A stretch of 32,000 nt of DNA, taken from an uncultured Actinomycetes bacterium. GTDB lineage: Bacteria > Actinomycetota > Actinomycetes > S36-B12 > CAIYMF01. The translations under genes were made by a program, and so were the position numbers. The DNA lies in assembly GCA_963843975.1 (NCBI GenBank), contig CAWJMG010000003.1:600001-632000 (forward strand). Direction: 5' to 3'. Positions 7,470-31,437 of this stretch are shown here, in pieces (the first letter of the stretch is position 1; each line of letters begins with the position of its first letter). The notes under the pieces are model-generated. The model did no database searches and was not told the origin of the DNA. It worked only from the letters and a program-made list of their open reading frames with translations.

Positions 7470-7492
7470 AGGACCACCCTAGGATCAGCAGG

Positions 7493-15901: not shown

Positions 15902-15973
15902 GTTGCTCCCCGGTTCGTGGCTGACGGACGCGCCACAATAGGCCCGTCCACCCCGTCGAAGCCTGGAGGTCGC
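15902..15973. promoter_or_regulatory. Divergent promoter region between the flippase/DPA operon and the GT-C-like gene
   Basis: This 72-bp gap holds the only AT-rich patch nearby (ccACAATAgg, 15935-15940). On the minus strand it reads TATTGT, which fits the actinobacterial -10 pattern TAnnnT, about 30 nt upstream of GTG 15901. No convincing -35. Confidence 0.3.
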
Positions 15974-17719
15974 GTGGCCGCCTCCCCGGCGACGTCGGGA
16001 GCACGAGCGTGGCGAGGCGACGCGACCATCTGGGGCGTCGCAGTCGTCGCGGCTGTCGTCGTCCTCGGTCCTGCCCTCGGCCCGGGCTATGTGCTGCATG
16101 CCGACCAGGTGTTCGTCCCGACCCAGGACCTGCTGCCGTGGATGCTCGGCGTCGGGTCGGGCCTGCCGCGCGCGGTTCCGCAGGACGGCGTCGTCGCGCT
16201 GCTGTCCGGGCCGGTGCCGGGGTGGCTGCTCGAGAAGGCGGCGTTGTTGGCCGCTCTCGTCCTCGTCGCGGTCGGCGCGGCGCGCCTCGTCCGACCTCGC
16301 GGCACGGGGGCTGCGGTGGTGGCGGGCCTCGTCGCCCTGTGGTCCGCCTACGTGGCCGAACGGCTTCTCCTGGGGCACTGGTCGTTGCTGCTCGCTGTGG
16401 CGGCGCTGCCGTGGGCGCTCGCGGCGGCGCGCGACGTGAGGTCGGGGCGGACGGGGTCGCTCGCGCGGTGGCTGCTGTGGGTCGCGCTCGCATCGCTCAC
16501 GCCGTCCGGCGGGATCCTCGTCCTCGTCGTCAGCCTTCCGGCGATCCTGTGGCCGGGCGGCGGTGCTACGACGCGCGTCCGGCTCGGCGCGGGGGTGCTC
16601 GGGATCGTGCTCCAGCTGCCGTGGATCGTCCCGACCCTTCTGCACCCGGCCCCGGTCACCGGCGCGGTCGGCGCCGACGTGTTCGCCGCGCGGTCCGAGG
16701 GTCCGTGGGGCCTGCTGCTCACAGTGCTCACCTCCGGCGGCGCCTGGAACTCGGGGGCGGTACCGGATTCGCGGACGGGCTGGTGGGGCATCGCGCTCGG
16801 GGTGCTCGTGCTGGTGGTCGCTGCGGCGGGTGCCCGGGATGTTCCACGGGTGCTCGGCCGGTCGATCGCGCTGCCGCTCGTCGTCGTCGCCGTCGCGGGG
16901 GTGCTGTGGTGCCTTGTCGGCGGCTGGTCGGCGACGAGGCCCGTGGCGGAGTGGGTGGTGGGCAGCATGCCGGGCGGCGGCCTGCTGCGTGACGCGCAGA
17001 AGTGGCTGGCGCCCTGGGCGCTGCTGGTCGCGGTGAGCGCCGGTCTGGGGGCTGGCCGGATCGCCCGGCAGATGGCAGCCCGGTCAGGGGACCGGGCTGC
17101 CGGGGTCGCGCTGCTCGTCGGTATGGCCCTGCTGCCGGTGCTCGCGCTGCCCGACCTCGTCGCCGGCGTGGGCGGCCGCCTCGCGGCCACGCAGTACCCC
17201 GACGACCTCGCGCGGGTCCGCGCCGCGCTCGACGATGCGCCCGAGGGCGACGTCGTCAGCCTGCCGTGGCAGACCTTCCGGGCCTTCCCCTGGAACGACG
17301 GAGGCCGCGTGTCGCTCGATCCGCTGCCGCGCGCCCTGCCCCGCACGGTGCTGTCCTCGGGAAGCCTGCCGGTGCAGAGGGGGGACCTGATCCTCACCCT
17401 GCCGGGGGACGACCCGCGCGCCACGGAGGTCGACGCCGCTCTCGAGGCCGGCGAGCCCCTGGGCCCGGTCCTCGCCCGGCTCGGCGTGGCCTACGCGGTG
17501 GTCGCCTCCGACCTGCCGGAGGCGGCCGCTGCACTGCCGACCGGTTCCACCGCCGTCGTGGCCGGCGCGTCCTTCAGCCTGTACCGGCTCTCGGCCGAGC
17601 CTGAGGCGGCCCCGGCCCGACCGGTGCTCGCGCCTGCGGCGGCGCTGGCGGCGTACCTGCTCGTGGTGCTGGGAGCGGCCGCCGCCCTGCTGGGCGTACG
17701 GCGTCGCGCCAGCAGGTGA
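15974..17719 (+). CDS. Polytopic membrane protein, putative GT-C-fold glycosyl(arabinosyl)transferase. The family was not recognised.
   Basis: GTG 15974 follows GGAGG (15965-15969). The 581-aa product has a first hydrophobic helix followed by an acidic loop (GYVLHADQVFVPTQDLLPW) and about 12 further hydrophobic segments. A roughly 150-aa soluble C-terminal region ends in one last transmembrane helix. Track ORF 15305..17719 upstream of 15974 overlaps the flippase gene and is artefact. Confidence 0.6.
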   Translation: MAASPATSGARAWRGDATIWGVAVVAAVVVLGPALGPGYVLHADQVFVPTQDLLPWMLGVGSGLPRAVPQDGVVALLSGPVPGWLLEKAALLAALVLVAVGAARLVRPRGTGAAVVAGLVALWSAYVAERLLLGHWSLLLAVAALPWALAAARDVRSGRTGSLARWLLWVALASLTPSGGILVLVVSLPAILWPGGGATTRVRLGAGVLGIVLQLPWIVPTLLHPAPVTGAVGADVFAARSEGPWGLLLTVLTSGGAWNSGAVPDSRTGWWGIALGVLVLVVAAAGARDVPRVLGRSIALPLVVVAVAGVLWCLVGGWSATRPVAEWVVGSMPGGGLLRDAQKWLAPWALLVAVSAGLGAGRIARQMAARSGDRAAGVALLVGMALLPVLALPDLVAGVGGRLAATQYPDDLARVRAALDDAPEGDVVSLPWQTFRAFPWNDGGRVSLDPLPRALPRTVLSSGSLPVQRGDLILTLPGDDPRATEVDAALEAGEPLGPVLARLGVAYAVVASDLPEAAAALPTGSTAVVAGASFSLYRLSAEPEAAPARPVLAPAAALAAYLLVVLGAAAALLGVRRRASR

Positions 17720-17974: not shown

Positions 17975-18011
17975 GACGAGGCGGTCACCCCGATGGGGTG
18001 GCCGCCTCGTC
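17975..18011. terminator. Hairpin between the convergent small ORF and GT4 gene
   Basis: GACGAGGCGGTCACCCC (17975-17991), loop gat, GGGGTGGCCGCCTCGTC (17995-18011), with one G-U position. It overlaps the last codons of the minus-strand GT4 gene. Confidence 0.4.
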
Positions 18012-19238
18012 TGCGTCTGCGGCAGGGAGAGGGTGGTGCACGTGCGCCGGCGGAGCGGGCTCCACCGGGGCAGTGCGTCCGGTGGCTTCCGCGAGAACGG
18101 CGGCGAAGCGCCGGGCGGTCTCGTCCCAGCCGAAGGACTCGGCTCGTAGCGCGGCGGCGGCCCCGAGGCGGTGCCGCATGTCGTGCTCGGTGAGCAGCAG
18201 CGTCACCGCGTCGACGAACCCGTCCAGGTCGTCGACGAGGACACCGGTGCGGCCGTCCACGATCGACTCACGGACCCCGCCGGCGCTGCGGTAGGCGATC
18301 GTCGGGACGCCGTAGCCGGCAGCCTCCATGACGACGAGGCCCCAGCCCTCCTTGAGCGAGGGCAGCAGCATGAGCCACGACTCCGACACGTGCTGGTGCT
18401 TGGTGTCCTCGTCCACGAAGCCCACGAAGTCGACCATGTCCACCACCCCCAGCCGGGCGGCCTCCGTGCGCAGCTCGGGGGACCACCAGCCGTCGCCGAC
18501 GATGCGCAGCCGGAGGTCGGGGAACTGCGGGCGCAGGCGGGCGACCACCTGCAGAGCGTGCTCGACCTGCTTGTGCGGCACGAGCCGTCCCAGGACGATG
18601 AGAGTCGGCACCGCTGCCGGTGCCGGGGGGAGCCGTGGAGGCTCGATCCCGTTGCGCACCACCGTGATCGCGTCGGGTGCGACGCCGAGCACGGCCAGCT
18701 CGTCGCGGGTCACCTCCGACACGGCGACGTAGCGCGAGCGGCGGTACGCCCGCGGACCTACCCGCGATTCGAGGAACCACCCGATGCGCGAGCGCACAGG
18801 GCCGTAGACCACCGGCCACTGCTCGCGGTGGACGTGGTGCACGAGGTTGACGACCGGGACCCGAGTGGCCCAGGTAGAAGCCCAGGGGACACCGTTCTGG
18901 ACGTCGACGACGACATCGAAGCTGCCGAGGCGCCGCGCCAGCTGCAGAACGAACGCGGTCGGGTAGACGCCGAGCTTGCTGCCGCGACGCACATACCTCA
19001 CGCCGTCGCGGACCTCCTCCGCCGTGGATCCGGGGTAGCGCGCGCAGAGGACGGTGACGGCGTCGCCACCCGCGGCGAGCGCCTTGGCCACGCTCTCGAC
19101 GTAGACCTCCGAGCCCCCGCCCTCCGGATGCCGCGTGTCCCGCCAGTTGCACACGAGCACGCGCAGCGGCGTCGGCGACGTCGCTCCGGGGCCGGGGCGG
19201 TGGGGCACGGGGGCTCGCTCTGCTGGGGTGAAGATCAC
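17985..19238 (-). CDS. GT4-family (GT-B fold) glycosyltransferase
   Basis: 417-aa ORF with RVLVCNWRDTRHPEGGGSEVY at the N-terminus. The C-terminal motif is LLPSLKEGWGLVVMEAAGYGVPTIAYRSAGGVRESIVDGRTGVLV (E-x7-E type). The GTG 19238 start is uncertain and a downstream start is possible. Confidence 0.85.
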   Translation of the reverse strand: MIFTPAERAPVPHRPGPGATSPTPLRVLVCNWRDTRHPEGGGSEVYVESVAKALAAGGDAVTVLCARYPGSTAEEVRDGVRYVRRGSKLGVYPTAFVLQLARRLGSFDVVVDVQNGVPWASTWATRVPVVNLVHHVHREQWPVVYGPVRSRIGWFLESRVGPRAYRRSRYVAVSEVTRDELAVLGVAPDAITVVRNGIEPPRLPPAPAAVPTLIVLGRLVPHKQVEHALQVVARLRPQFPDLRLRIVGDGWWSPELRTEAARLGVVDMVDFVGFVDEDTKHQHVSESWLMLLPSLKEGWGLVVMEAAGYGVPTIAYRSAGGVRESIVDGRTGVLVDDLDGFVDAVTLLLTEHDMRHRLGAAAALRAESFGWDETARRFAAVLAEATGRTAPVEPAPPAHVHHPLPAADADEAATPSG

Positions 19239-19250
19239 GGGTGCGGCACG

Positions 19251-19272
19251 AAGGTTACTCGCGAGTCACCTT
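19251..19272. promoter_or_regulatory. 22-bp near-perfect palindrome (operator candidate) in the GT4 / methyltransferase-aftD divergent region
   Basis: AAGGTTACTCG|CGAGTCACCTT has 10 of 11 positions symmetric. It is AT-rich relative to its surroundings. It lies 12 nt from the GT4 start and 41 nt from the methyltransferase start. Confidence 0.45.
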
Positions 19273-19313
19273 GATGCCGACTCCCTCGACGCAGTCGGGT
19301 AGCGTCCCGCGGC

Positions 19314-20060
19314 GTGGAGGCGAAGGAGTTCCGGGCGACCCTGGGTCGCTCGGTGCGCCTGCTGCGGGACTTCCGGCACGAGCAGGACGACCCGGACCGC
19401 TTCTACGGCGCCCTGGCACGGGACTCCGCCGCCCAGGTCGGCTCGCTGCACCCCCTGCGCGGGGCGACGCTGCTCGACGTCGGCGGCGGTCCCGGCTACT
19501 TCGAGGACGCCTTCACCGCCGAGGGTGCGCGGTACGTCGCGCTCGACGCGGACGCCGGCGAGCTGGCCCTGCACGGGCGCACGCCAGGCCCGCGGACCGT
19601 CCTGGGGGACGGGCTGGCCCTGCCCTTCGCCCGAGGCTCGTTCGACGTCACCTACTCCAGCAACGTCGCCGAGCACGTCCCTGAGCCGTGGCGGATGGCC
19701 GAGGAGATGGTGCGGGTGACGAGGCCCGGCGGTCTCGTCTTCCTGTCGTACACCCTCTGGTACGGCCCTTGGGGCGGGCACGAGACCTCGCCCTGGCACT
19801 GGCTCGGGGGAGACCGTGCCGCCGACCGGTACCGACGCCGGACCGGCCACGACCCCAAGAACGTCTACGGCACCTCGTTGTTCCGCGTCACCGCCGCCGC
19901 CGCGGACCGCTGGGCTCGCAGCGCCGTCGCGTCGGGCGCCCTGCGCGACGTCCGGCTCGTCCCGCGCTACCTGCCCTCGTGGGCCGGCGCCGCAGCGAGG
20001 ATCCCCGCGGTGCGCGAGGTCGTGTGCTGGAACCTCGTCGTCGTCGGGCGCAGGACGTGA
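19314..20060 (+). CDS. Class I SAM-dependent methyltransferase (Rv0224c-like)
   Basis: 248-aa ORF from GTG 19314 with SAM motif I LLDVGGGPGYF and post-I ALDAD. It also carries the N-terminal FRHEQDDPDRFYGALARDSA segment that I associate with the mycobacterial Rv0224c family. Its stop overlaps the aftD-like start (GTGA 20057-20060). Confidence 0.85.
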   Translation: MEAKEFRATLGRSVRLLRDFRHEQDDPDRFYGALARDSAAQVGSLHPLRGATLLDVGGGPGYFEDAFTAEGARYVALDADAGELALHGRTPGPRTVLGDGLALPFARGSFDVTYSSNVAEHVPEPWRMAEEMVRVTRPGGLVFLSYTLWYGPWGGHETSPWHWLGGDRAADRYRRRTGHDPKNVYGTSLFRVTAAAADRWARSAVASGALRDVRLVPRYLPSWAGAAARIPAVREVVCWNLVVVGRRT

Positions 20061-23000
20061 CGCGCGCCGTCTGGCGGTTCCGTCTGCTCGCGACGTGCCT
20101 GGCGCTCACGGCGTTCGCCTTCCTCCAGGACCCAGGCAGGGTGGCCGCCGACACCAAGCTCGACCTCACGGCCGACCCGTGGGGGTTCCTCGGGCGGGCG
20201 CTACACCTCTGGGACGACCAGGGCTTCTTCGGCCAGCTGCAGAACCAGGCGTACGGGTACCTCTTCCCCATGGGCCCGTTCTTCGGCGTGCTCACCAGCG
20301 CGGGACTTCCCGCCTGGGTCGTGCAGAGGATCTGGTGGTCCGTGCTGCTGGGCGCGGCATTCCTGGGCGCCGTCCGACTCGCGCGGCTCCTCGGTGTCGA
20401 CAGCCCTGGCGCGCGCTGGGTGGCAGGTCTGGCCTTCGCGCTCGCGCCGAGGGTGGTGTCGACCCTCGGCCCCATCTCCTCCGAGACGCTGGTCGTCGCG
20501 ATCACGCCGTGGGTGCTGATCCCGCTCGTGCTGGCCACGCAGGGCGCGCCTCGATGGACGCCGAGGCGCGCCGCCGCCGTCTCCGCCGTCGCCGTCCTGG
20601 CAGCCGGGGGGGTCAACGCCGTGGCGACCGGCGCGGCTCTCGTGCTGCCCTTCCTGTGGCTCATGACGCGGGCGGGGGGACCGGCGCGACGCCGACTGGT
20701 GCTGTGGTGGGCGGGGTGCGTCGGGCTCGCCACGCTGTGGTGGGTCGTGCCGCTCCTGACGCTCGGCCGCTACTCCCCGCCCTTCCTGGACTGGATCGAG
20801 TCCGCGTCGGTCACGACCGGCCGTACCGATGTGGCCACGGCTCTCCGCGGCAGCGACGACTGGGTGGCGTACGTCGCCGGAAGCGGCGGGCCGTCGTGGC
20901 CGGCCGGTTGGAGCCTCGTCACTGAGCCTCTGCTGATCCTGCTCACGGGGCTGGTGGCCGCCGCGGGACTCACGGGCCTGGCGCTGGTACGACGCGAGCG
21001 CCGCTTCCTGCTGCTGGCCCTGCTCGTCGGGCTCGTGCTCACCACGCTCGGGCACACGGGTGCCGTCCAAGGGTTGGGCGCGCCGCAGCTGCAGCAGCTG
21101 CTCGACGGTGCCTTGGCGCCGCTGCGCAACACGCACAAGTTCGACGTGGTGATGCGACTGCCTCTGGCGCTCGGTGTCGGCTTCGTCGTGGCTGCCCTGG
21201 GGACCCGGCTGTCCCGGCTACGTCGGCCACGGCTCACCCAGGCAGTGGCGCGGCGGACGGCCGTCGTGGTGACCGGTGTGCTGGTGGTCGGCGCGGCCTG
21301 GCCGCTGGTGACGGGCTCGATCACGCGCAACCGCTCGTACGAGTCGATCCCTGGCTACTGGCAGGACGTCGCCGACTGGCTGGCGGCGGACGGCGAAGCC
21401 GACGGCACCGCACTGGTCGTTCCAGGGGCGCCGTTCGGGGTGTACCTCTGGGGCAGGAGCCAGGACGAGCCGCTGCAGCCGCTCTCCTCGACCCCGTGGG
21501 CCGTACGCGACGCCGTCCCGCTGTCGTCGGCGGGGAACATCAGGCTCCTCGACCGCGTCGAGGCGAGGCTCGCCTCGGGGCGCGGCTCTGCCGGCCTCAC
21601 GGAGGCCCTCGCCCGGGCCGGCGTCCGCTACCTCGTGGTCCGCAACGACCTGGACACCGTGTCCGCGCAGGCGCCCCGGGCGATCCTCGTCCACGAGGCG
21701 ATGGACGCGTCACCCGGCATCACGTTCGAGCGCGGCTTCGGACCGCCCATCGTGCCCTTCGGCACCGGGACGACGGTGGTCGACGCCCGACTGGACGCGG
21801 CGTACAGCGCCGTCGAGGTCTACCGCGTGACCTCGCCGACCGAACCCGGCGACGGTCGCGCGGTCGTGCGCGACGCGAGCGACACGGTGTGGTCGCCGAC
21901 CACCACCAGCGACGCGGTCGTCGACCTCGCAGACGCGGGCCTGCTCTCCGGCCGGGCCGCCGTCCTCGGTGAGTCGGCCCCCGACGGGGTGACCACCACG
22001 CCCGTCCTGACCGACTCCTACCGTCGGACGGAGGTCGACTTCGGCCTGGTGCACGACAACCGCACCGCGGTCCTGCGGGCCGACGAGGAGTACGTGCGCG
22101 CGCGCAAGGCGCACGACTACGGAGCGGGGAGCCTGTCGGTGCCCGTCACGTCGACGCTCGAGGGTGTCGAGGAGGTGCGCGCGTCGTCCAGCCAGTCGGG
22201 TGTCGGCGCGCTCGACGGCATCGTGCCGGGGCGGTCGCCGCGGGCTGCCCTCGACGGCGACCTCACCACGGCGTGGCAGGTCCGTGATCTCGCCTCAGCC
22301 TCGCCCTCGTGGTGGGAGACGACCTTCACCGCGCCCCGTGATCTCGGGAGTCTGCAGATCGCGGTCCTGCGCGATCCGGTGACCGGTGCCGGCCCCACGG
22401 ACGTGACCGTGGTGACCGACACGGGCAGTGCGCAGACGGCTGTGGCCGACGGCGAGGACCTGCAGACCGTGGCCGTGCCTCCCGGTGCGACCCGCTCTCT
22501 GCGCGTCGAGCTGACGGCGGCATCACCGGCAGCCGGCGCACGTGTCGTCGGCCTCCGTGAGGTGCTGGTGCCCGGAGTGCTCACGGGAGCTCCGCTCCAG
22601 CTTCCACGCGCTGCGGGGTCGGGCGGCGTGGTGCTGACAGCCCGCGACGGCGCCCGCGACGGATGCGCGAGCGTCCCCCTGCGCTTCCCGTGCGGTTCCG
22701 CCCTTCCCCGCGAGGGGGAGGACGAGGTCGGCATCGACCGTCTGGTCGACCTTGCCGACGGCGGCACCTATGACGTCGCGGTGACGGTCCGGCAGCGCTC
22801 GGGCAGCGGGGCCGGTCGGCTGCAGGACCCGTCCCGGCCGGCGATCAGGGCCTCGGCGTCGAGCGTCCTGGTCGCAGACGCGAGGAACAGGCCGCAGGCG
22901 GCTGTCGACCGTGACCCGTCGACGGCCTGGATCGCCGCCGTCGGCGACGTCCGGCCGAAGCTCACGCTGACTCTCCCCGAGCCCCGCCGCATCACCGGCC

Positions 23001-24196
23001 TGGTGCTGCAGACCGAGCCGGACGTGGGTGCCTCCCGCCCGTTCCTGCTGACCGTGCAGGCCGGCGGACGCAGCATCGACACGGCGGTGGACGAGCAGGG
23101 GGCTGTGACGCTGCCCCCGATCACGACGTCGAGCATCACCATCACCTTCCGCGGTGCGACGTCGCTGCGCTCGATCGACCTGCAGCGAGGGATGAGCACG
23201 GTGCTCCCGGTCGGTGTCTCGGAGGTCCTCGTGCGCGGTGCGCTGGACCTCGGCCTCGGCGTGTCGAGGGAGGCGGCGACGGGTGTGGCCTGCGGCTTCG
23301 GTCCTGCGGTGGAGGTGGACGGCGCACCGGCGGTGCAGACGACCCTTCTCACGACGACCGGTTCGCTCCTGAACGGTCGGAGTCTGCGGGCCAACGCGTG
23401 CGGCGGGACGCTGCCGCTGCCGGCGGGCACGCACCGCATTCGCGTGCGGTCGACCCCGGAGCTTTCGGTGGTGTCCCTCGCGCTCACCCCGGTGGGCGCC
23501 GCGCGGACAGCCTCCGATGCCGAGCCGGCCGAGATCGTGCGATGGACGGCGACCGATCGCACGCTGCTCGTGACGCCGTTCCCCGAGGTCCGCACGCTCG
23601 AGCTGGCCGAGAACGCCAACAGGGGTTGGGTCGCCACCCTTGGGGGCGAGCCCCTGGCCGGCGTGGTGGTCGACGGGTGGCGCCAGGCGTTCGTGCTCCC
23701 GGCGGGGGCCGGAGGCGAGGTGGCCGTGGTGTTCGGGCCCGACCGCTTCTACCGGCTAGGGCTTGCCGGGGGCGCCGTGGCGGTCCTTGCGCTCCTCGTC
23801 CTGGTTGCCTGGCCCCGTCTCCGGCGCGAGGGCGTGACAGCCGTGCCAGCCTCTCGCCGGCCCATCTCCATCCTGCGGCTGCCCCCGGGCCTCATCGCGG
23901 CGACGACGGTCGCGATCGTCGTCGCCGGTGTCGCCGGAGTCGTCGTGGGCGCGCTGGCGCTGATCGCCGCTCGAAGCCGTCACCGGGTCCGCGCCGTGGC
24001 CCTGAGTGCGGTCACCGCATCGGTTCTGGCCGCAGCGGCCCCCTGGCCAGGCTCGCTGGACAGTCCCGTTCTGGTCCTGGCCGCGTCGCTGGTCGCCCTC
24101 TTCGCCGTGCTCGTGCTCGTGTGCCCCGCGGGCTGGGTCAGGCCCGGACGAGGTGCCGAAGCCGCGACGCCGGGCGCTCGACGATCCGCCAGCTGA
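20057..24196 (+). CDS. aftD: AftD-like alpha-(1->3)-arabinofuranosyltransferase (DUF3367 GT-C domain plus carbohydrate-binding modules), 1379 aa
   Basis: GTG 20057 gives VTRAVWRFRLLATCLALTAFAFLQDPGRVAADTKLDLTADPWGFLGRALHLWDDQGFFGQLQNQAYGYLFPMGPFF. This matches the recalled M. tuberculosis AftD N-terminus (DTKLDLTANP...QNQAYGYLFP). A large soluble region has discoidin-like signatures (DGDLTTAWQ, DRDPSTAWIA), and C-terminal transmembrane helices follow. Confidence 0.85.
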   Translation: MTRAVWRFRLLATCLALTAFAFLQDPGRVAADTKLDLTADPWGFLGRALHLWDDQGFFGQLQNQAYGYLFPMGPFFGVLTSAGLPAWVVQRIWWSVLLGAAFLGAVRLARLLGVDSPGARWVAGLAFALAPRVVSTLGPISSETLVVAITPWVLIPLVLATQGAPRWTPRRAAAVSAVAVLAAGGVNAVATGAALVLPFLWLMTRAGGPARRRLVLWWAGCVGLATLWWVVPLLTLGRYSPPFLDWIESASVTTGRTDVATALRGSDDWVAYVAGSGGPSWPAGWSLVTEPLLILLTGLVAAAGLTGLALVRRERRFLLLALLVGLVLTTLGHTGAVQGLGAPQLQQLLDGALAPLRNTHKFDVVMRLPLALGVGFVVAALGTRLSRLRRPRLTQAVARRTAVVVTGVLVVGAAWPLVTGSITRNRSYESIPGYWQDVADWLAADGEADGTALVVPGAPFGVYLWGRSQDEPLQPLSSTPWAVRDAVPLSSAGNIRLLDRVEARLASGRGSAGLTEALARAGVRYLVVRNDLDTVSAQAPRAILVHEAMDASPGITFERGFGPPIVPFGTGTTVVDARLDAAYSAVEVYRVTSPTEPGDGRAVVRDASDTVWSPTTTSDAVVDLADAGLLSGRAAVLGESAPDGVTTTPVLTDSYRRTEVDFGLVHDNRTAVLRADEEYVRARKAHDYGAGSLSVPVTSTLEGVEEVRASSSQSGVGALDGIVPGRSPRAALDGDLTTAWQVRDLASASPSWWETTFTAPRDLGSLQIAVLRDPVTGAGPTDVTVVTDTGSAQTAVADGEDLQTVAVPPGATRSLRVELTAASPAAGARVVGLREVLVPGVLTGAPLQLPRAAGSGGVVLTARDGARDGCASVPLRFPCGSALPREGEDEVGIDRLVDLADGGTYDVAVTVRQRSGSGAGRLQDPSRPAIRASASSVLVADARNRPQAAVDRDPSTAWIAAVGDVRPKLTLTLPEPRRITGLVLQTEPDVGASRPFLLTVQAGGRSIDTAVDEQGAVTLPPITTSSITITFRGATSLRSIDLQRGMSTVLPVGVSEVLVRGALDLGLGVSREAATGVACGFGPAVEVDGAPAVQTTLLTTTGSLLNGRSLRANACGGTLPLPAGTHRIRVRSTPELSVVSLALTPVGAARTASDAEPAEIVRWTATDRTLLVTPFPEVRTLELAENANRGWVATLGGEPLAGVVVDGWRQAFVLPAGAGGEVAVVFGPDRFYRLGLAGGAVAVLALLVLVAWPRLRREGVTAVPASRRPISILRLPPGLIAATTVAIVVAGVAGVVVGALALIAARSRHRVRAVALSAVTASVLAAAAPWPGSLDSPVLVLAASLVALFAVLVLVCPAGWVRPGRGAEAATPGARRSAS

Positions 24197-25316
24197 GTGC
24201 CGCGACGCCTGTCGAGCAGACGGCAGCAGCGGGGAGCAGCCACCAGGCGCCGCCCGTGAACGGGTCACGTCCGGTCACCTCGAGGAGCGTCCACACCACG
24301 GCCAGGTGCCAGAGGAAGATGCCGTAGGACCATCGGCCGAGCGCACGCCCCACCGTCGAGGTCAAGGCACGGTGCCAGCCGTCGTGACGGGTGCCGAGGA
24401 ACCCTGGTGCGAGGAATGCCACTGCTGCGGCCCCGTACAGGACGTGGCGTGCCACGACCGTCCACGCGGGGGACTGCTCCAGGGTGTAGCTGCCACCCAC
24501 CGGTGTTGCAGCGACGAGCAGGCAGGCCAGGGCGATGACGAGACAGGTCCCGGTGTCGTTCGCGAGCTCCAGCACGCGTCGGGTGGCCGGGCCCGGGGTC
24601 CCGAGGCGACGTCGCTCGTGCAGCACGGCGGCCGCCATCCCGAGCGCGAACCAGTCCAGGAACGCCGGCAGCCACAGGCCTGCACGCGGGTCGCTCACGA
24701 GGCCGACCGATCGCGCGACGGTGGTCGCGAGCCCGAGCGCGGCGACGCAGCCCAGCCCGACGAGCTGGGCACGCGCCGACCGGTCTGCGTCGCCGCGCCC
24801 GCGCCGCGTGACGAGCCAGGCCAGGGGCGGCAGCGCGAGGTAGAACGCGATCTCCGCTCCGAGGCTCCACGTGTGCGTGAGTCCTTCGACCAACGGATCG
24901 GGGGAGTAGGTCTGCAGGACGCCCAGGTGCACGAGCCAGGTCCGCAGCGGGTGCGGCCCCCCGGACGCCGGCAGCCAGAGCAGCACCACGACGACGAGCA
25001 CCCAGTAGGCCGGGAGGATCCGGATCGCGCGCCGCCACAGGTAGCCGGCCAGACGGGGCGGGCGACCCCCGGTCATCCCCGCCCGGGCCCACGGGCGGTA
25101 GAGCAGGAACCCCGACAGCAGGAAGAAGATCGTGACGCCCCAGTCGAGCCGCGAGGCGAATCGTCCGGCAGCGTTGAGCTGGACCCACCCGGTGAGGAAG
25201 GCGACGTGCGTCGTGAGCACGAGCAGCGCGGCGACGGCCCGGTAGCCGTCCAGCGCGGCGAGCCGATGCTCGGTCGGCGCTGGTGCGGCGAGCGGCGCGG
25301 TGCTCACGGTGGTCAC
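24138..25316 (-). CDS. Acyltransferase family 3 (OafA/YrhL-type) integral membrane O-acyltransferase
   Basis: 392 aa from GTG 25316 with RLAALDGYRAVAALLVLTTHV, FFLLSGFLL and RRAIRILPAYW, the hallmark acyl_transf_3 N-terminal motifs. Its start overlaps the upstream stop (GTGA 25313-25316). Confidence 0.85.
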   Translation of the reverse strand: MTTVSTAPLAAPAPTEHRLAALDGYRAVAALLVLTTHVAFLTGWVQLNAAGRFASRLDWGVTIFFLLSGFLLYRPWARAGMTGGRPPRLAGYLWRRAIRILPAYWVLVVVVLLWLPASGGPHPLRTWLVHLGVLQTYSPDPLVEGLTHTWSLGAEIAFYLALPPLAWLVTRRGRGDADRSARAQLVGLGCVAALGLATTVARSVGLVSDPRAGLWLPAFLDWFALGMAAAVLHERRRLGTPGPATRRVLELANDTGTCLVIALACLLVAATPVGGSYTLEQSPAWTVVARHVLYGAAAVAFLAPGFLGTRHDGWHRALTSTVGRALGRWSYGIFLWHLAVVWTLLEVTGRDPFTGGAWWLLPAAAVCSTGVAALSWRIVERPASRLRHLVRA

Positions 25317-27188
25317 GGTGCGGCAGCCTCGAGTGGTGCGGTCGTCGCCTGTCCCAGGCGCACCGTGCTGACGCAGACGGTGGCACCCGGAGACGTGGCC
25401 CGAAGCGTGACGGTGCGCCCGCCTCCGAGGATGCCGGTGTAGATGTCGTGCAGGCCTGGCTCCAGCGCGACCGTGCGCACCGGGTCGGCGCCCATGCTGA
25501 TCTCGAGCGATGTCGGGGCGGACGCGATGTACGCGATGTGCACCATGTGGTCGAACCGCACCACCTCAGTGCTCATACGCACCGAGGTCCCTGCGTCGCG
25601 AACGAGCCAGCCGCAGTCGGGGACCGGTCCGGGCACCGAGGCGGGCCCCTGCACGCGGCCGGGCACGACCTTGCCGAAGTCGTCGATCAGCAGCAGCTGG
25701 TCGACGGTGCCGGTGAACGTGGGGAGGTCCTCCTCGCCGGCGAAGAACCAGCTGTACTGGTTGAACGGGAAGACCAGCGCCCAGATCACGAACCCGGGGA
25801 CGCTGCCGTCCATGAAGTCCTTGTCGGGCCCCACGGTGCGCAGCTCGGTCAACGACGACTTGGCCCAGCGCGCCTCGGGCCCGTCGCCGAGCCCCGGTGC
25901 GAAGGCGACGACCGCGACCAGGAACGAGGCGATCTGGAGCTGGGCGAGCACGAGGGCGGAGATCGCAGCTGCCGTGCGACGTCGCGGCCGCCACTCCGTC
26001 AGCATCTCCGGCGCCGGGTCGTCGCGGAGCCGTGCCAGGGCGAGCGCCGACGCGATCACGGTGACGACGACCAGGTCGGAGTAGTAGCGGGGGAGGCTGG
26101 AGGTCTCGACCAGGAACTGGGCGCGACCGAGGTTGATCAGCAGCAGCACCAACGCGCCGTAGACGACGACCAGCAGCAGGGCTCGGCGGGCTCGCGGTCC
26201 GAACGTGGCCACGAACAGGCCGGCCGCGAGCACCACGACGCTCAGGACGAGGCCCACCCAGCCGGGCGTGGGAACGGCGTTGTAGCTGCTGAGCGCCGAG
26301 CCCCAGTCCCAGGGCCCCCCGAACAGCGAGGGCACGAAGGTGCCGATGAGGCCGGACGAGAGCTGATCGGCGAAGCGCGCGATGTTGGGTCCCGCCACGA
26401 CCGACGACGTCCCGTTGCTGCGGTAGGCGACGTACCAGCCGCCCAGCAGCGCCACCAGTCCGAGGAACAGCGGCCAGTGCAGGCGCAGGACGTGCAGCCC
26501 TGCCCTGACGACGTTGTGGACCGGGGTCACCGCGACGAGGAGGAGGGCCACGACCACGGGCAGCAGCACCGACTTCTCGAAGAAGCCGAGGGATGCCGCC
26601 GTCGCCCCGAGGATCCAGAAGTAGCTTCCCCAGCGTCGCCCGTGGCCGAGCCTCAGCGCGTGGTCCGCGACGATCAGCATGCAGGCGATGAAGGGGGTGG
26701 AGTTCAGGGCCGTCGCCCACCACACCGAGATCTGCACCACCGGGATGCTGGTGAGGAAGAGCACCAGTGGGACGAGCATCCGCCAGCGCAGTCCGACGTG
26801 CCGCACGAGGAAGCGGTACGCCATCACGGCGATCAGCGCCTGGCCGAGGGCCAGGGCCACGGCGATCCAGGCGTACTGGAAGCCGCCGAAGCTTCGAGAA
26901 CGGCTGGGCGACGACGAAGGACAGGGGCATGTAGTGCCCGCCCCAGGGTTGGAACACGTACTCCGGGTCGAGCCAGTCGAAGTGCGCGCCCTGGCCGCGG
27001 AACATGAAGTCGTCGGCGTAGTACCAGCCGCGCAGGCACAGCCAGGTGAGGATCGCGATCTGGGCGCCGACCATCGCGCGGGCCACCTGCCGGACGCGCG
27101 CCTGCGTCGGGTGCAGCGGGGTTTTCGCCCCCGCGCCCGCAGAACGGTCCGCGACCTTCGTGTGGGCAGGGGTGTGTACGGCTGTCAC
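25313..27188 (-). pseudogene. Polytopic membrane protein of unknown function (paralog B of the 27185..29002 gene), interrupted by one extra base near 26891
   Basis: The N-terminal 99 codons come from track ORF 25566..27230, starting at GTG 27188: VTAVHTPAH...AQIAILTWLCLRGWYYADDFMFRGQGAHFDWLDPEYVFQPWGGHYMPLSFVVAQPFSK. The next frame continues FGGFQYAWIAVALALGQALIAVMAYRF... (track ORF 25313..26860). The span is 1876 nt, which is 3n+1. The join aligns without a gap to paralog A. Confidence 0.75.
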
Positions 27189-29002
27189 GGCGCGATCACC
27201 GGCACTCCCACGGTGATGTCGTCGGTGCACACCGAGACGCCCGACGAGATGGACCCGATGCGCACGGCGTCGCCCCCACCGGTGAGGTTGAGGTCGACCT
27301 CGCCGAGGCCGCGGGAGATCGGGACCTCGACTCCCGGCGCATCACCGAACGAGACCATGGCGGTCCCGTTCCCCGAGGCGAAGTAGGTCATGCGGATCGT
27401 GTGCGCGAAGTCGGGAACGGCTGTCGCGAGCGGAACCGAGCCCGAGTCGCGGAGGAGCCAGCCGCAGCCCGGCACCGGGCCCTTGGCGCTGGCCACGCCC
27501 TGGACGATTCCCTGCCGGAGGCTGCCGTCGGCAGCGAGGACCCGCAGCTGCGTCGTGACGTCCGCGATGTCAGGGCGTGGTTCCAGAGGGGCGAGGAACC
27601 GACCGATGAGCTGGTACGGCGAGGAGAGCGGGGAGAGCACCGCCGGGGGCACGGCCTGGTCGAGCAGCGCCGGCCCCTCGGCCGCTGTCGCAAGCGAGTA
27701 CGTGGCTCCTCCGACGTACCCCCGGCCGTCGTTGGCCGACCAGACCGTCCGGTACCCCGACAACGACACCAGCGACGCGACGACGACCGCGCACACAGCG
27801 GTGACGGCGAGGGCAGGGCTCGCCAGGGACGGCACGTGGACTCCCCGGAGGTGCGCCAGGCCGCGGCGCGTGGGGCCGCGCAGGACCTGCAGCGCCATCC
27901 CGAGCGCCAGAGCGAGCGGCAGCCCGGCAGCGGCGGTGACGCGCAAGGTCTGGATGCTGTAGGCCGTCGTGGACGGGACAGGCGAAGCGAGCAGAGCCAG
28001 GCCGACGGTCAGCAGGAGCCAGGTGAAGGCCCAGACCCAGAGGGCGAGCGCACGACGGGAGAGCGCCGAGCTCGTCACCACGAGGACGAGGACGACCTGC
28101 AGGGCGGCGATCGTCCACCACAGGGGCGGGTTCGTCGCCGGCGTCTCAGGGGCGAGCGGCGCCCAGGTGAGCGGCCCGCCGACCAGGGCGCCGAGTCCGT
28201 CGCTGACGGCACGCCCGACAGCGTTCGCCCAGTCCTCGGCCTGCGGCCGCCCCGGATATGTCGTGGGCACGAGCACGATCCGGGCGACGACAGCCGCGGC
28301 GACCAGCGCAGTCGCCGCCGCCGCGAGGATGGTGACGGCACGCCGGCTCCGTCGCGCGCCTCCGGGATCGAGGACCGGGAGGACGGCCACGGCGAGGACC
28401 GGCACGAGCAGCGCCAGATCCCCGAACGGGCACACGAGGATCCAGACGATCGTGGCCAGGACCAGGGGCACCGTGGATCCGCGCCGCCACCAGGTGGTCC
28501 CGGCGAGCAGGAGCAGCAGGAGGCTGATCTGCGTCAGCGACGTGGGCACGCCCGAGGTCCACCAGGCGGACTGAGGCAGGGTGAGGGGCGAGAACGCGAG
28601 GAGCGTGACGGGGACGAGCGTCCACCAGGAGCCAGGCCACAGCCTGAGCATGAGGCGGGTGGCGAGCAGCACCACGAGGCACTGGAGACCGATCAGGATG
28701 AGCGACTGAGGAGTGAAGTTCATCGGCCACGCCCGCGACAGCGGCCACTGGAGCGCGGCCAGGCCGGGCGTGATGCCCGGGACCGGTGCCTGGAGCAGGT
28801 AGTCCTGGGTGAACGGCAGCTCCCAGCCGCGGATGCGCAGCACGTGGTCGGAGTCGTGGAACCACCCGCTGCCCAGCAGCCAGAACCTCACCACGACACC
28901 GAGGGCGGCGACGGTGATCGCACCGCGTCGCGGGTCCCAGTAGCGGGTGAGGAGGGTGCGCGCATCGGCGTGCGCCGACACCACGACCCCAGCGCTCGCC
29001 AT
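27185..29002 (-). CDS. Polytopic membrane protein of unknown function (paralog A), possibly GT-C-like
   Basis: ATG 29002 follows GGGGAGAA. The 605-aa product begins MASAGVVVSAHADARTLLTRYWDPRRGAITVAALGVVVRFWLLGSGWFHDSDHVL... and has many hydrophobic segments. A roughly 170-aa C-terminal domain contains GPVPGCGWLLRDSG and VSVCTDDITVG. Track ORF 27185..30163 upstream of 29002 is artefact. Confidence 0.75.
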   Translation of the reverse strand: MASAGVVVSAHADARTLLTRYWDPRRGAITVAALGVVVRFWLLGSGWFHDSDHVLRIRGWELPFTQDYLLQAPVPGITPGLAALQWPLSRAWPMNFTPQSLILIGLQCLVVLLATRLMLRLWPGSWWTLVPVTLLAFSPLTLPQSAWWTSGVPTSLTQISLLLLLLAGTTWWRRGSTVPLVLATIVWILVCPFGDLALLVPVLAVAVLPVLDPGGARRSRRAVTILAAAATALVAAAVVARIVLVPTTYPGRPQAEDWANAVGRAVSDGLGALVGGPLTWAPLAPETPATNPPLWWTIAALQVVLVLVVTSSALSRRALALWVWAFTWLLLTVGLALLASPVPSTTAYSIQTLRVTAAAGLPLALALGMALQVLRGPTRRGLAHLRGVHVPSLASPALAVTAVCAVVVASLVSLSGYRTVWSANDGRGYVGGATYSLATAAEGPALLDQAVPPAVLSPLSSPYQLIGRFLAPLEPRPDIADVTTQLRVLAADGSLRQGIVQGVASAKGPVPGCGWLLRDSGSVPLATAVPDFAHTIRMTYFASGNGTAMVSFGDAPGVEVPISRGLGEVDLNLTGGGDAVRIGSISSGVSVCTDDITVGVPVIAP

Positions 29003-29197
29003 GGTTCTCCCCGTGTCCTGTCTCCGATGTCCGGGTGATTGTGCCCCACGCCGCGGACCGGACCTGCCGACGCGCAGGTCGGGGGCGCGGCATGACGGAA
29101 CCGGTGTCGTTTTGTGACCTGCGTGTTTCGCCGTGATGCTGGTCAGGGAGGTTACTGTCCGGTACGTTCCGCGCGACACAACTCGCGGAGGTCCGGA

Positions 29198-30145
29198 ATG
29201 CGCCGAGGAATCGGTCTGGTGCTCGTCGCCCTCGGTGTGGCACTCCTGGTGCTGGCACCGATGGTCAAGTTCTACGCCGTCCCCAAGCTGGCGGTGGCGC
29301 CCCTCGACCTCGATCCGAAGTCGCCGAGCCTCAACGAGGGCGTTGCAGAGACGCTCCTCGACATCTCGACGCTCACCGAGCAGACCAACGTCCCCGTCAC
29401 CTCGACGCGGTTCACCACCGCTGACGTCGCCGCCTCGCAGGCCGCCGGCGGCAACATCGGCGTGTACGAGTCGTTCAGCCGCGTCAACCGTGCTGACGGC
29501 AGCCTCGTCACCGCGGGGACCGAGCGTTATGCGTTCGACCGCACCACGAACGTCATGACGACGGGGTCGAACGCCAACCTCGACGGTGAGCCGATCACGG
29601 ACGCGATGATCGCGGGCGACGCGATCATGCCGCTCAAGCTCCCCTTCTTCGTCGACAAGAACGCCGTCTACAACTACTTCGACACCTCGCTGCTGAAGGG
29701 CTACCCGCTGGCCTTCGTCGAGGAGACGCAGATCGACGGCCTCACGGTCTACAAGTTCGAGTCGAAGATCGAGCCGACCCAGATCGGTGAGCAGGAGGGC
29801 ATCGGCGAGAAGGTCGGCGGCACCGCGGACTTCGTGGCGCCCCGGTTCTACGCGAACGATCGCGTCGTCTTCGTCGAGCCCATCACCGGCCAGGTCGTGG
29901 ACGGTTACGAGGACCAGCTCCAGACCTTCCGCGGCCCTGATGGCACGGACAAGATCACGATCATCAAGGCCAAGATCGGCTTCACCGCGGAGAACAAGGC
30001 GACCGCCGTCTCCGACGCGAAGGCGAACTCCGCCAAGCTCGGGCTTCTCGCCAACACCGTTCCTGTGGTCGCCGCCGTCGCCGGTCTCGTCCTGCTGGTC
30101 ATCGGCATCCTGCTGATCCGTCGGCCGGACGGCACGGACGCCTAG
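29198..30145 (+). CDS. DUF3068 ('PorA-family') bitopic envelope protein
   Basis: ATG 29198 lies 6 nt after GGAGG (29187-29191). The product begins MRRGIGLVLVALGVALLVLAPMVKFYAVPKLAVAPLDLD..., the DUF3068 N-terminus as I recall it. A soluble central domain and a C-terminal transmembrane helix (VVAAVAGLVLLVIGILLI) complete the 315-aa protein. Confidence 0.7.
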   Translation: MRRGIGLVLVALGVALLVLAPMVKFYAVPKLAVAPLDLDPKSPSLNEGVAETLLDISTLTEQTNVPVTSTRFTTADVAASQAAGGNIGVYESFSRVNRADGSLVTAGTERYAFDRTTNVMTTGSNANLDGEPITDAMIAGDAIMPLKLPFFVDKNAVYNYFDTSLLKGYPLAFVEETQIDGLTVYKFESKIEPTQIGEQEGIGEKVGGTADFVAPRFYANDRVVFVEPITGQVVDGYEDQLQTFRGPDGTDKITIIKAKIGFTAENKATAVSDAKANSAKLGLLANTVPVVAAVAGLVLLVIGILLIRRPDGTDA

Positions 30146-30208: not shown

Positions 30209-31357
30209 TCAGGGAGCAAGGCCACCGACGTCGACGAACTCCGGCACCGAGGCGAGCGCGTCCCTCATCAGGACACGCGCTGAGGGCGACGTCCGGCTCA
30301 GCACCACGACCCCTGCAGCACCGGGGGGCGTAGCGACCAGCCCCGGCGCGTACGTGTACTCGGAGTCGGTCGAGGGGGACTGCAGCAGGACGCGCGACGT
30401 CCACGGTCCCCACGCGTGCGCGGAGGTGAGCGCAGCGACGTCCTCGTCGAGGAACTCCTCGGGCTTGGTCACGAGCAGGACGCCCGCGGCGGTCGCACGC
30501 GCTGCGAGAACCGTGGACACGCCGGCACGGAGGACCACCCGCGCGGCCGAGGGCGAGGGCGACCACCCGGTCGCGGTGCGGTAGGTCCAGGTGGCGGCGT
30601 CCGCCACGGTGGCGACGGGTGCCCTGGCGAGCAGAAGATCCCGGCCGAGCTCGCCGGCGTGCGGGCGGGTGCCGTAGATCCACACGTGGTCGCCGACCGG
30701 TGCGAATGCGGCGCCCCAGAGCACGTCCGACGCGGGCAGGTCGACGACGGGTCCGACCTGCGGCGCACCGTGGGAAGGAATCGTCAACGTCGCCGTCGCG
30801 GCGCCCACCCGGCGGAATCCGAAGGCGTCGCCACGGTCCACGGCGAGACGCTGGCCGAACACGACCACGGTCACCGGGTCATCCCCTCGGACGACCACGG
30901 AGTGCGTGGGCCACAGCCAGGTGCCGTCTCGGCCCGGGAGCGCGTCCTTCCCGGGCGACACGGAGGTCCAGCACCCACCGTCCGTGACAACCACGCTGTT
31001 GCGCAGCATGGCGGCATCGGGTCCTCGAACGCCGTCGTCGTCCACGGTGCCGGTGAAGGTGTCCCCGAACACCCAGAGCAGCCGACCGTCCGGCAGCCGT
31101 GTGCTGGACGCTCCGTCGCCGCCCGCCCAGTCCCCGTCCTGCGCACCGAACAGCCGACTCCATCCGGCGGCGTCGCTCGGCTCGTCGCCGCAGTCCTCGG
31201 TGGCGGTCGGCGCCGCGGTGGGGGCAGCACCGGTCATGGTCTGGGACGCCGCGGGGTGGGCGCCGCTCACGGAGTGCGGCGCGTACGACGACGGCGCACC
31301 TGCCCCCGCAGCGGCGACGAGGGCGAGGACGACCGGTCCGACCACGCCATGGAGCAC
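30209..31357 (-). CDS. Secreted beta-propeller-like glycoside-hydrolase-like protein (possibly DUF4185-type)
   Basis: 382 aa from GTG 31357 with a hydrophobic N-terminus VLHGVVGPVVLALVAAAGAGA and an Ala/Pro/Thr linker. Repeated blade-like segments follow (GGDGASSTRLPDGRLLWVFGDTFTG, NSVVVTDGG, GTWLWPTHSVVV, VWIYGTR, LLLARAPV...ATWTY). The family call is from memory only. Confidence 0.6.
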   Translation of the reverse strand: MLHGVVGPVVLALVAAAGAGAPSSYAPHSVSGAHPAASQTMTGAAPTAAPTATEDCGDEPSDAAGWSRLFGAQDGDWAGGDGASSTRLPDGRLLWVFGDTFTGTVDDDGVRGPDAAMLRNSVVVTDGGCWTSVSPGKDALPGRDGTWLWPTHSVVVRGDDPVTVVVFGQRLAVDRGDAFGFRRVGAATATLTIPSHGAPQVGPVVDLPASDVLWGAAFAPVGDHVWIYGTRPHAGELGRDLLLARAPVATVADAATWTYRTATGWSPSPSAARVVLRAGVSTVLAARATAAGVLLVTKPEEFLDEDVAALTSAHAWGPWTSRVLLQSPSTDSEYTYAPGLVATPPGAAGVVVLSRTSPSARVLMRDALASVPEFVDVGGLAP

Positions 31358-31437
31358 GTAGTGGTCTTCGACGTCCGTCGCAGCCCGTCATGAACTGGAT
31401 GCGCCGAACGGGTGACGCCCGCACGCCACCTGGTGCG

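Follow-up and report, generated by a model that had tools for sequence, protein, structure and literature searches.

What do two adjacent genes for polytopic membrane proteins contribute to a locus that also encodes an AftD-like arabinofuranosyltransferase and an acyltransferase? The question is raised by a stretch of 32,000 nucleotides (the window; positions 600001-632000 of contig C3, CAWJMG010000003.1, in assembly GCA_963843975.1) from an uncultured Actinomycetes bacterium, whose genome assembly comprises 4.19 Mb in 3 contigs with a GC content of 72% and a completeness of 92.9%. The two genes, here called A and B, are arranged in tandem on the minus strand and are followed by the acyltransferase gene. 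A first description of the locus, made from the DNA letters and their translations (the sequence-only reading), saw in A and B two proteins of about 600 amino acids with a shared two-cysteine C-terminal domain, and proposed that they may be unrecognised lipid-linked-sugar transferases of the GT-C type or proteins that present an acyl acceptor. The analysis reported here identifies A and B as tandem paralogs of a large and unnamed family that is spread across the Actinomycetota. The GT-C reading is supported, and the members of the family are probably integral-membrane glycosyltransferases with a GT-C fold, with the catalytic activity argued from predicted structure, conserved residues and gene neighbourhood.

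Genes A and B and their family

Gene A is a clean open reading frame (ORF) of 605 amino acids. Gene B (25313-27188, 1876 nt) was described as a second gene of this kind, however, it is not one open frame and contains a frame break that is considered below. The GTGA overlaps that were reported to chain the genes are present; the first (27185-27188) joins the stop codon of A to the GTG start of B, and the second (25313-25316) joins the stop codon of B to the GTG start of the acyltransferase gene. The C-terminal domains of A and B are 34% identical over 171 amino acids (BLASTP E = 5e-24), which confirms that this domain is shared. The similarity that had been claimed for the remaining parts is less direct, as the N-termini align weakly as a pair (E = 0.009) and their relationship becomes evident only from the family alignment and the two structure models. 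The acidic-loop strings quoted for the region after the first transmembrane helix are found in A (GSGWFHDSDHVL) and in B (LRGWYYADDFMF). The B loop features the expected Asp pair, whereas A reads DSD and has a Ser in place of the first Asp, which is 100% conserved in the family. The two conserved Cys residues are the sole Cys residues of each C-terminal domain, and 147 of 149 family sequences contain the pair.

The size of the family was determined by an exhaustive hidden Markov model (HMM) search of 1.84 billion cluster representatives (50% identity clusters). At E ≤ 1e-3 this search returned 2337 representatives, with 892 of them at E ≤ 1e-30; almost all are 580-650 amino acids long and are matched over their full length. 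Sources that assign a name use 'hypothetical protein'. Additionally, one genome per species was scanned with patterns seeded from those family sequences that have the WWAAALN and GGPW.W motifs in common, and at least 564 loci were confirmed. All of the best 80 of these are from Actinomycetota; they include Mycobacterium, Mycolicibacterium, Nocardia, Rhodococcus, Hoyosella, Actinoplanes, Micromonospora, Nocardioides and Aeromicrobium, as well as Kribbellaceae, Dermatophilaceae, Ornithinibacter, Jatrophihabitans, Blastococcus, Pseudonocardia and Streptosporangiaceae.

The statement that A and B belong to no named family holds for their relatives as well. Searches of Pfam-A and NCBIfam gave no match for A or B at E ≤ 1, and no match above E = 0.005 for 79 relatives. 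By the HMM cut-offs, the proteins are not members of the named GT-C families (PMT, PMT_2, STT3, Arabinose_trans, AftA_N, GT87, GT-C_AftD, DUF2142 and others), and PDB sequence searches with two family profiles found no chain at E ≤ 10.

The family features its own set of near-invariant residues. In the membrane part these are D59, D60, H85, M87, P88, Q116, W156, W157, N162, P165, E204, K205, G290-G291-P292-W293-x-W295, R355, R367, Y368 and D371 (B numbering), and in the C-terminal domain they are G505, G520-P521, C525, Y553, G578, C605 and G612. D59 and D60 are conserved in 100% and 99% of 147 representatives. The resulting motif set, located at the periplasmic membrane face, consists of DD after the first transmembrane helix, H-x-M-P, WW..N..P, E-K (FEK), GGPW.W, an R, and R-Y..D.

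Predicted fold and topology

The structures of A and B were modelled by AlphaFold2 with a 79-sequence alignment, and B was modelled as the read-through protein. Both models are confident, with a predicted local distance difference test score (pLDDT) of 90.4 and a predicted template-modelling score (pTM) of 0.90 for B, and a pLDDT of 92.0 and a pTM of 0.91 for A. The full-length Foldseek matches of the two models in the PDB are without exception GT-C enzymes (EmbA/B/C, ArnT, yeast and human STT3, PglB, AftA, AftB, DPY19 and Pmt4), with E-values of 7e-5 to 1e-2, a probability of 1.0 and template-modelling scores (TM-scores) of ~0.35-0.48. The top matches of the A model are EmbB/EmbA/EmbC and ArnT. 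This outcome is in line with the proposal of unrecognised GT-C-type transferases. The last 170 residues are modelled as a beta-sandwich for which Foldseek returned carbohydrate-binding modules (CBMs), namely CBM36, CBM61, CBM6/35, the BiXyn10A CBM1 and an arabinoxylanase CBM, as well as the lectin-like domain III of Cry toxins.

By its model helices, each protein has 11 transmembrane segments. A positive-inside count on these helices finds 23 Lys and Arg residues on the cytoplasmic side and 6 on the periplasmic side for B, and 17 and 6 for A. The excess on the cytoplasmic side leads to a predicted topology with the N-terminus inside, whereas the DD loop, the C-terminal domain and every conserved polar residue would face the outside. 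The prediction thus puts the acidic loop and the Cys domain on the side of the membrane where the sequence-only reading had put them. In the B model, D59 and D60 are located 5 residues past the first transmembrane helix at the start of a juxtamembrane helix. The invariant Cys pair probably forms a disulfide in the extracytoplasmic domain. Three features of the GT-C superfamily, structural similarity, an acidic motif after the first transmembrane helix (DSD in A) and a cytoplasmic N-terminus with the loop and the soluble domain outside (predicted), are found in the two proteins. A fourth, the use of a sugar donor linked to polyprenyl phosphate, is suggested by context, through the UbiA, DprE1 and DprE2 genes of the locus.

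A conserved copy and a degenerate copy

The two genes are not equivalent. B agrees with the consensus at all of the conserved polar positions, whereas A departs from it at 22 of 60 conserved columns. The near-invariant residues lost in A are nine, D59S (in the DSD motif), H85G, M87T, N162P, P165L, K205L, R355S, Y368V and D371A (B numbering), and E204 is also replaced, conservatively, by Asp. All of the conserved positions of the C-terminal domain are kept in A. B is probably the catalytic copy, judging from its residues. A is probably either a non-catalytic protein (a partner or an acceptor-binding subunit) or a re-specialised paralog, because it has kept the fold and the CBM-like domain while about nine invariant polar residues were lost. 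The earlier suggestion that both genes encode transferases is doubtful for A, and the 'acceptor presenter' that had been offered as the alternative fits A better.

A second tandem pair is found in one congener, G021, and among the 24 congeners the A and B pair is present only in this genome and in the source genome (G000). G021 has the same order of DUF3068, A, B and acyltransferase genes with an ATGA overlap, its B ortholog is intact, and its positional A ortholog has kept all of the conserved residues. In the family tree, A pairs with the A gene of G021 (support 99) and B pairs with the B gene of G021 (support 100), which indicates that the duplication predates the split of the two genomes. 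The terminal branch of A is 1.61 and that of the G021 A gene is 0.66. Hidden compensating frameshifts were considered as the source of the divergence of A and were rejected, as one single-frame tblastn high-scoring segment pair against the G021 ortholog spans the whole gene.

Between G000 and G021 the A proteins are 38% identical and the B proteins 42%, whereas the flanking DUF3068 protein is 82% identical and the acyltransferase 77%. A and B are by far the fastest-changing part of the operon, which suggests that the glycosyltransferase genes are hypervariable, or have been replaced, while the operon around them is conserved. For the source genome itself the result is modest: one ordinary-looking catalytic copy, with a probable assembly error inside it, and one degenerate copy.

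Independent duplications of the family gene were observed in Ornithinibacter (L021, 9442-13262), in Dermatophilaceae (L023, 6007-7824 and 10001-11770) and in an uncultured actinobacterial metagenome-assembled genome (MAG) (L016, 10001-13454). The duplicated copies in the Dermatophilaceae and Ornithinibacter loci retain the conserved residues, and the second copy in L016 is split over two frames.

Genomic context across the Actinomycetota

The gene order in the window is AftD, acyltransferase, B, A, DUF3068 and a DUF4185 protein. Additionally, the DprE2-like, DprE1-like and UbiA-type genes (11751-14750) form a single minus-strand chain that represents, by Pfam assignment, a complete decaprenyl-phospho-arabinose (DPA) donor pathway. 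The window physically links genes that are tied together in mycobacteria by phenotype only.

In 22-24 of ~30 loci from outside the Mycobacteriales, an Acyl_transf_3 gene and AftD are located no more than 10 kb from the family gene. The acyltransferase gene is usually the next one downstream, in the same orientation. About 20 of the loci also contain DUF3068, GT4, methyltransferase and MmpA-type genes. In M. lehmannii, queries from the window recovered a block of methyltransferase, GT4, MmpA-type, DUF3068 and acyltransferase genes, and the two acyltransferases are 40.5% identical. We take this block to be the Rv0224c-Rv0228 block of the M. tuberculosis map, with the acyltransferase at the Rv0228 position.

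The phylogenetic profile of the family is nested within that of AftD. AftD (PF11847) is present in 20 of 40 relatives and the family profile in 15, all of which are AftD-positive, and in none of the 20 AftD-negative genomes; the 40 relatives are kin and not independent, and the co-occurrence is supportive rather than statistical. Of the 24 congeners, 12 contain the family profile.

Relation to known systems

Exactly one family gene was found in each of five Mycobacteriales/Micromonosporaceae genomes, with E-values of 1e-198 to 1e-260. In Mycobacterium this gene adjoins an NAD-dependent (galE1-type) epimerase gene and is located near holB/topA, and the epimerase-adjacent gene of M. lehmannii matches the family profile with E = 1.6e-260. 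A and B match ~50 Mycobacteriales loci with E-values of 1e-17 to 1e-47 (tblastn), and sequence comparison indicates that the window genes are homologous over their full length to the mycobacterial gene between galE1 and holB/topA. MSMEG_6142 is a GalE1 homolog (PMC5389812). Together with the epimerase-adjacent position, this places the mycobacterial family gene at the position of MSMEG_6143. The M. tuberculosis gene at this position is presumably Rv3635. Synteny and the published description of the protein make MSMEG_6143 most probably the mycobacterial family member.

In the M. smegmatis CRISPR interference atlas, MSMEG_6143 is described as polytopic, with a GT-C-like structure and a periplasmic domain at the C-terminus. 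The knockdown groups with those of genes for mycolate synthesis and transport and of MSMEG_0311, MSMEG_0315, MSMEG_0317 and MSMEG_0319, and lowers AzLac labelling; the gene was not taken further in that study (bioRxiv 10.1101/2025.11.14.688347). A second preprint reports that the tmaT phenotype strongly correlates with those of aftD, MSMEG_6143, mmpA and MSMEG_0311, and predicts an AftD-TmaT complex (bioRxiv 10.64898/2026.07.15.738315). MmpA (NCgl2761/Rv0226c) is needed for the acetylation of trehalose monocorynomycolate (TMCM) by TmaT (PMC8698533). MSMEG_6143 appears to belong to the same sequence family as A and B, with a matching published architecture. The window genes differ from the mycobacterial members in that they are only ~25-27% identical to them, are duplicated and are located in an AftD/acyltransferase locus instead of beside galE1. 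The fold assignment is not new, as the family was noticed earlier as GT-C-like in one preprint (bioRxiv 10.1101/2025.11.14.688347), and the two preprints tie MSMEG_6143 to TmaT, AftD and MmpA by phenotype without giving a mechanism. What is added here is the finding that, outside the Mycobacteriales, the family gene has a conserved linkage with AftD, with the acyltransferase and with the DPA pathway, together with the motif set, the degenerate paralog and the hypervariable pair.

The likeness to EmbA/EmbB/EmbC, AftA, AftB and ArnT is one of fold, with the best Foldseek matches to 7bvc, 6x0o, 7bvh, 5f15/5ezm, 8if8 and 9dlf. A and B share with this group the acidic motif in the first periplasmic loop after the first transmembrane helix, a periplasmic domain of the carbohydrate-binding type after the transmembrane bundle and a genomic link to the DPA pathway. 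However, there is no detectable sequence similarity, the Pfam Emb and AftA domains are absent and the global TM-score is ~0.4. The Emb proteins have 15 transmembrane segments and ~1100 amino acids, whereas the family of A and B has 11 and ~600, with a motif set of its own (WW..N..P, FEK, GGPW.W and RY..D). An identity with AftB (GT89) was rejected, as no sequence match to the AftB PDB chains (9dlf, 9dlh) was found and the match is at the fold level only (E = 3e-3, TM-score 0.37).

MmpA is also a polytopic protein with an extracytoplasmic domain near the C-terminus, encoded in a conserved envelope locus of MtrP, GT4, MmpA, DUF3068 and TmaT (PMC8698533). An identity of A and B with MmpA/Rv0226c was rejected because the window contains a separate MmpA-type gene. 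The presence of one family gene per mycobacterial genome, at the galE1 locus, likewise puts the Rv0226c/MmpA gene in a different family. AftD (Rv0236c), which has PF11847 as its N-terminal GT-C domain, resembles A and B in being a GT-C enzyme with CBM-type domains, and it is encoded 1 kb away in the window. However, A and B do not match PF11847, AftD is not among the top 50 Foldseek matches, and an hhalign comparison of the family with the AftD GT-C domain alignment gave a probability of 0.2% and E = 0.3.

Proposed mechanism

The hypothesis offered here is that the family members are periplasm-facing transferases of lipid-linked sugars that feed the acyltransferase. By analogy with Emb, Aft and ArnT, a polyprenyl-phosphate sugar would be bound by the carboxylates of the DD motif together with the conserved Lys/Arg residues, and the sugar would pass to an envelope glycan that is held by the periplasmic CBM-like domain. 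The donor would most likely be DPA, because the whole DPA pathway and AftD are encoded in the same locus. The product of the next operon gene, a TmaT/SucT-type acyltransferase, would then O-acylate the same polymer.

Several observations weigh against this hypothesis. To our knowledge the family has no characterised member. No link at the level of sequence was detected between the family and any characterised GT-C protein in Pfam, NCBIfam, the PDB or the hhalign comparison with AftD, and the structural evidence consists of modest Foldseek E-values (about 1e-4) and global TM-scores of about 0.4 for predicted models. Transferase activity is doubtful for A, which has lost most of the conserved polar residues, and B has a frame break in this assembly. 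The mycobacterial family gene is located beside a UDP-Gal/GalNAc 4-epimerase gene and not beside DPA genes, and the donor could be another sugar. Five AftD-positive relatives (completeness 64-99%) do not have the family, which indicates that it is not an obligate partner of AftD. Additionally, the probable identity with MSMEG_6143/Rv3635 is derived from synteny and the M. tuberculosis gene order.

Alternative explanations and the frame break in gene B

A and B could instead be non-enzymatic scaffolds with a GT-C-like fold, which would use the CBM-like domain to hold a glycan acceptor for the acyltransferase encoded downstream, comparable to what has been proposed for AftD-TmaT and MmpA. The tight and conserved adjacency with the acyltransferase gene and the start/stop overlap are consistent with such a role, as is gene A, which does not have most of the conserved polar residues and still encodes a whole C-terminal domain. 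The predicted AftD-TmaT complex (bioRxiv 10.64898/2026.07.15.738315) and the finding that an mmpA knockout phenocopies a tmaT knockout (PMC8698533) point in the same direction. However, the DD, H.MP, EK, R and RY..D residues are 90-100% conserved in the 147 representatives, which is the pattern of a catalytic or donor-binding site, and they are retained by B and by nearly all relatives. We judge the scaffold explanation to be unlikely, and the transferase hypothesis is preferred.

A different explanation is that the locus is decaying, with B a true frameshifted pseudogene, A a degenerating copy and the product no longer made by this strain. The frameshift is present in the assembly, A has lost conserved residues and has a long branch, and the occurrence of the family in only 12 of the 24 congeners together with its absence from the five AftD-positive relatives suggests that it is dispensable. 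The nature of the frame break was examined to weigh this explanation. The translations show that the first transmembrane helix and the YYADDF loop of B (27188-26890, the first ~100 codons) are in one frame and that the remaining 525 codons (26890-25313) are in another. The G+C content at third codon positions (GC3) is 0.9-1.0 in the first frame only down to ~26890, where the frame switches, and a 7-state Viterbi segmentation placed the switch at 26889/26890. The family profile matches B with positions 1-69 in one frame (E = 5.5e-19) and 69-587 in the other, and the intact B ortholog of G021 aligns by tblastn with residues 1-107 and 110-630 flanking the break. The protein matches of relatives fall in two frames, so that the break amounts to one extra base. 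When AAGC is read as a single step, the result is an uninterrupted B protein of 624 amino acids, and the reading of AAGC as K is unique. A bridging step at CTTC was rejected, as a second in-frame CTTC garbles the C-terminus.

The state of both genes speaks against the decay explanation. Both halves of B have a GC3 of 0.9-1.0 and contain every conserved residue, the break is single in 1.9 kb, and A has no frame breaks and a model pLDDT of 92. Other genes in the window are split in the same manner. In the polA gene (7472-10190, plus strand), the frame of 7472 encodes the 5'-3' exonuclease and exo1-like domains and the frame of 8976 encodes a complete DNA_pol_A domain, with the coding-frame switch at 8991/8992; this split is most likely an assembly indel. 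A periplasmic binding protein gene (ANF_receptor/Peripla_BP_6; 3-873, plus strand) is split over two frames with a switch near 480-540, and its profile positions 77-207 are in one ORF and 267-350 in the next. In the first 1.2 Mb of contig C3, 84 same-strand coding-frame switches without a nearby stop codon were counted, or 70 per Mb. The control loci (1.15 Mb) have 19 switches per Mb, most of them in long-read 'MFD' MAGs and the remainder, in short-read loci, at roughly 7 per Mb; the rate in C3 is ~10 times that of short-read assemblies. Split genes of the same kind were found in two other few-contig, low-completeness congeners (G008 and G010). Because polA and the binding protein gene are split alike, and because switches without stop codons occur at 70 per Mb compared with ~7 per Mb, the frameshift in B is quite probably an assembly indel and not a real mutation. 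A lone frameshift anywhere in this genome should not be taken as evidence of a pseudogene, and a decaying locus appears to be a rather improbable explanation.

It is very improbable that A and B are protein oligosaccharyltransferases or glycosyltransferases (PglB/STT3- or PMT-like) that act on secreted proteins instead of building polysaccharides. In favour of this explanation, STT3, PglB and Pmt4 are among the Foldseek matches and MSMEG_6143 was flagged as an 'N-oligosaccharyl transferase' by distant homology (bioRxiv 10.1101/2025.11.14.688347). Against it, none of 79 members matches STT3 or PMT in Pfam, the C-terminal domain, a small sandwich of the CBM-like type, is unlike the periplasmic domain of oligosaccharyltransferases, the genomic context is one of arabinan/DPA genes and AftD, and EmbB, EmbA and ArnT outrank the oligosaccharyltransferases in Foldseek.

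Wider implications

The transferase hypothesis can be extended, tentatively, to an ancestral Actinomycetota machine that comprises the GT-C family, the TmaT/SucT-type acyltransferase, AftD, DUF3068, the MmpA-type protein, GT4, an MtrP-type methyltransferase and the DPA pathway. Such a machine might build and O-acylate an arabinan-type envelope glycan and predate mycolic acids; as a whole this extension is possible but speculative. The analysis does suggest that the module is older than the mycolate envelope. If the extension were true, tmaT, mmpA, aftD and MSMEG_6143 would act in glycan assembly, and the 'mycolate export' phenotypes that they show in mycobacteria would be a secondary effect. 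B would install the residue that is modified by the acyltransferase, and A would be a catalytically inactive paralog that forms a pair with it, as EmbA does with EmbB. With 38-42% identity between the two congeners, compared with 77-82% for the flanking genes, A and B would then stand out as the strain-variable, specificity-determining parts of the surface glycan.

Feature positions and neighbouring genes

The positions of genes A and B, their conserved sites and the neighbouring genes are collected in Table 1.

Table 1. Location of genes A and B, their sites and the surrounding genes in the window, with the basis of each assignment.
Feature	Position	Strand	Basis
Gene A, 605 aa, GT-C-fold paralog with degenerate conserved residues	27185-29002	-	ORF and translation
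A D50-S51-D52, in place of the family x-D-D motif just after the first transmembrane helix	28847-28855	-	Family alignments; model helix begins at residue 50
A Cys513 codon (27466-27464) to Cys592 codon (27229-27227), candidate disulfide in the periplasmic domain	27227-27466	-	Columns 99% conserved
Gene B N-terminal segment, first frame: cytoplasmic tail, first transmembrane helix, YYADDF motif, GHYMP motif	26890-27188	-	Translation, GC3, family profile
B D59-D60, invariant Asp pair of the family, where the first periplasmic helix begins	27009-27014	-	Sequence position and conservation in 147 representatives
B +1 frame break (...CCG TTC TCG AAG C/TTC GGC GGC..., break at the slash), one extra base relative to intact orthologs	26885-26892	-	Translation, segmentation, homology
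Gene B remainder, second frame: transmembrane segments 2-11 and C-terminal beta-sandwich	25313-26889	-	Translation, homology, AlphaFold2
B Cys525 codon (25615-25613) to Cys605 codon (25375-25373), candidate disulfide	25373-25615	-	Conserved columns
Acyltransferase-3 (TmaT/SucT-type), last gene of the A-B-acyltransferase chain	24138-25316	-	Pfam PF01757, E = 5.6e-26
AftD-like GT-C arabinofuranosyltransferase with CBMs, convergent with the acyltransferase	20063-24196	+	Pfam PF11847, E = 2e-229; PF24607
DUF3068/PorA-family membrane protein (Rv0227c type), divergent from gene A	29114-30145	+	Pfam PF11271, E = 2.2e-63
MmpA (Rv0226c)-type polytopic protein, family distinct from A and B	16100-17719	+	Homology to M. 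lehmannii gene; coding-frame segmentation
GT4 glycosyltransferase, Rv0225 type	17985-19265	-	Pfam; homolog in M. lehmannii locus
S-adenosylmethionine (SAM) methyltransferase, Rv0224c type	19275-20060	+	Pfam; homolog in M. lehmannii locus
DprE2-like protein	11751-12512	-	Pfam adh_short
DprE1-like protein	12506-13861	-	Pfam FAD_binding_4 and ALO
UbiA-type prenyltransferase	13830-14750	-	Pfam UbiA

The MmpA-type gene is contained in a longer ORF. The M. lehmannii gene that is located between GT4 and DUF3068 matches residues 415-969 of this ORF with 37% identity (E = 2e-63). The ORF, of 974 amino acids (14795-17719, plus strand), is a chimera in which plus-strand coding is confined to the MmpA/Rv0226c-type part; the region 14704-16100 is coding on the minus strand, for a protein without a Pfam match. 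A promoter and terminator scan of 23900-29400 found none, and such a scan is uninformative at 72% GC. The 3' ends of the AftD-like and acyltransferase genes overlap convergently by 59 nt (24138-24196). At the edge of the locus, the minus strand encodes a secreted DUF4185/DUF5005-like protein (30209-31387) with a weak Pfam match, below the DUF4185 cut-off margin, which is possibly a glycan hydrolase.

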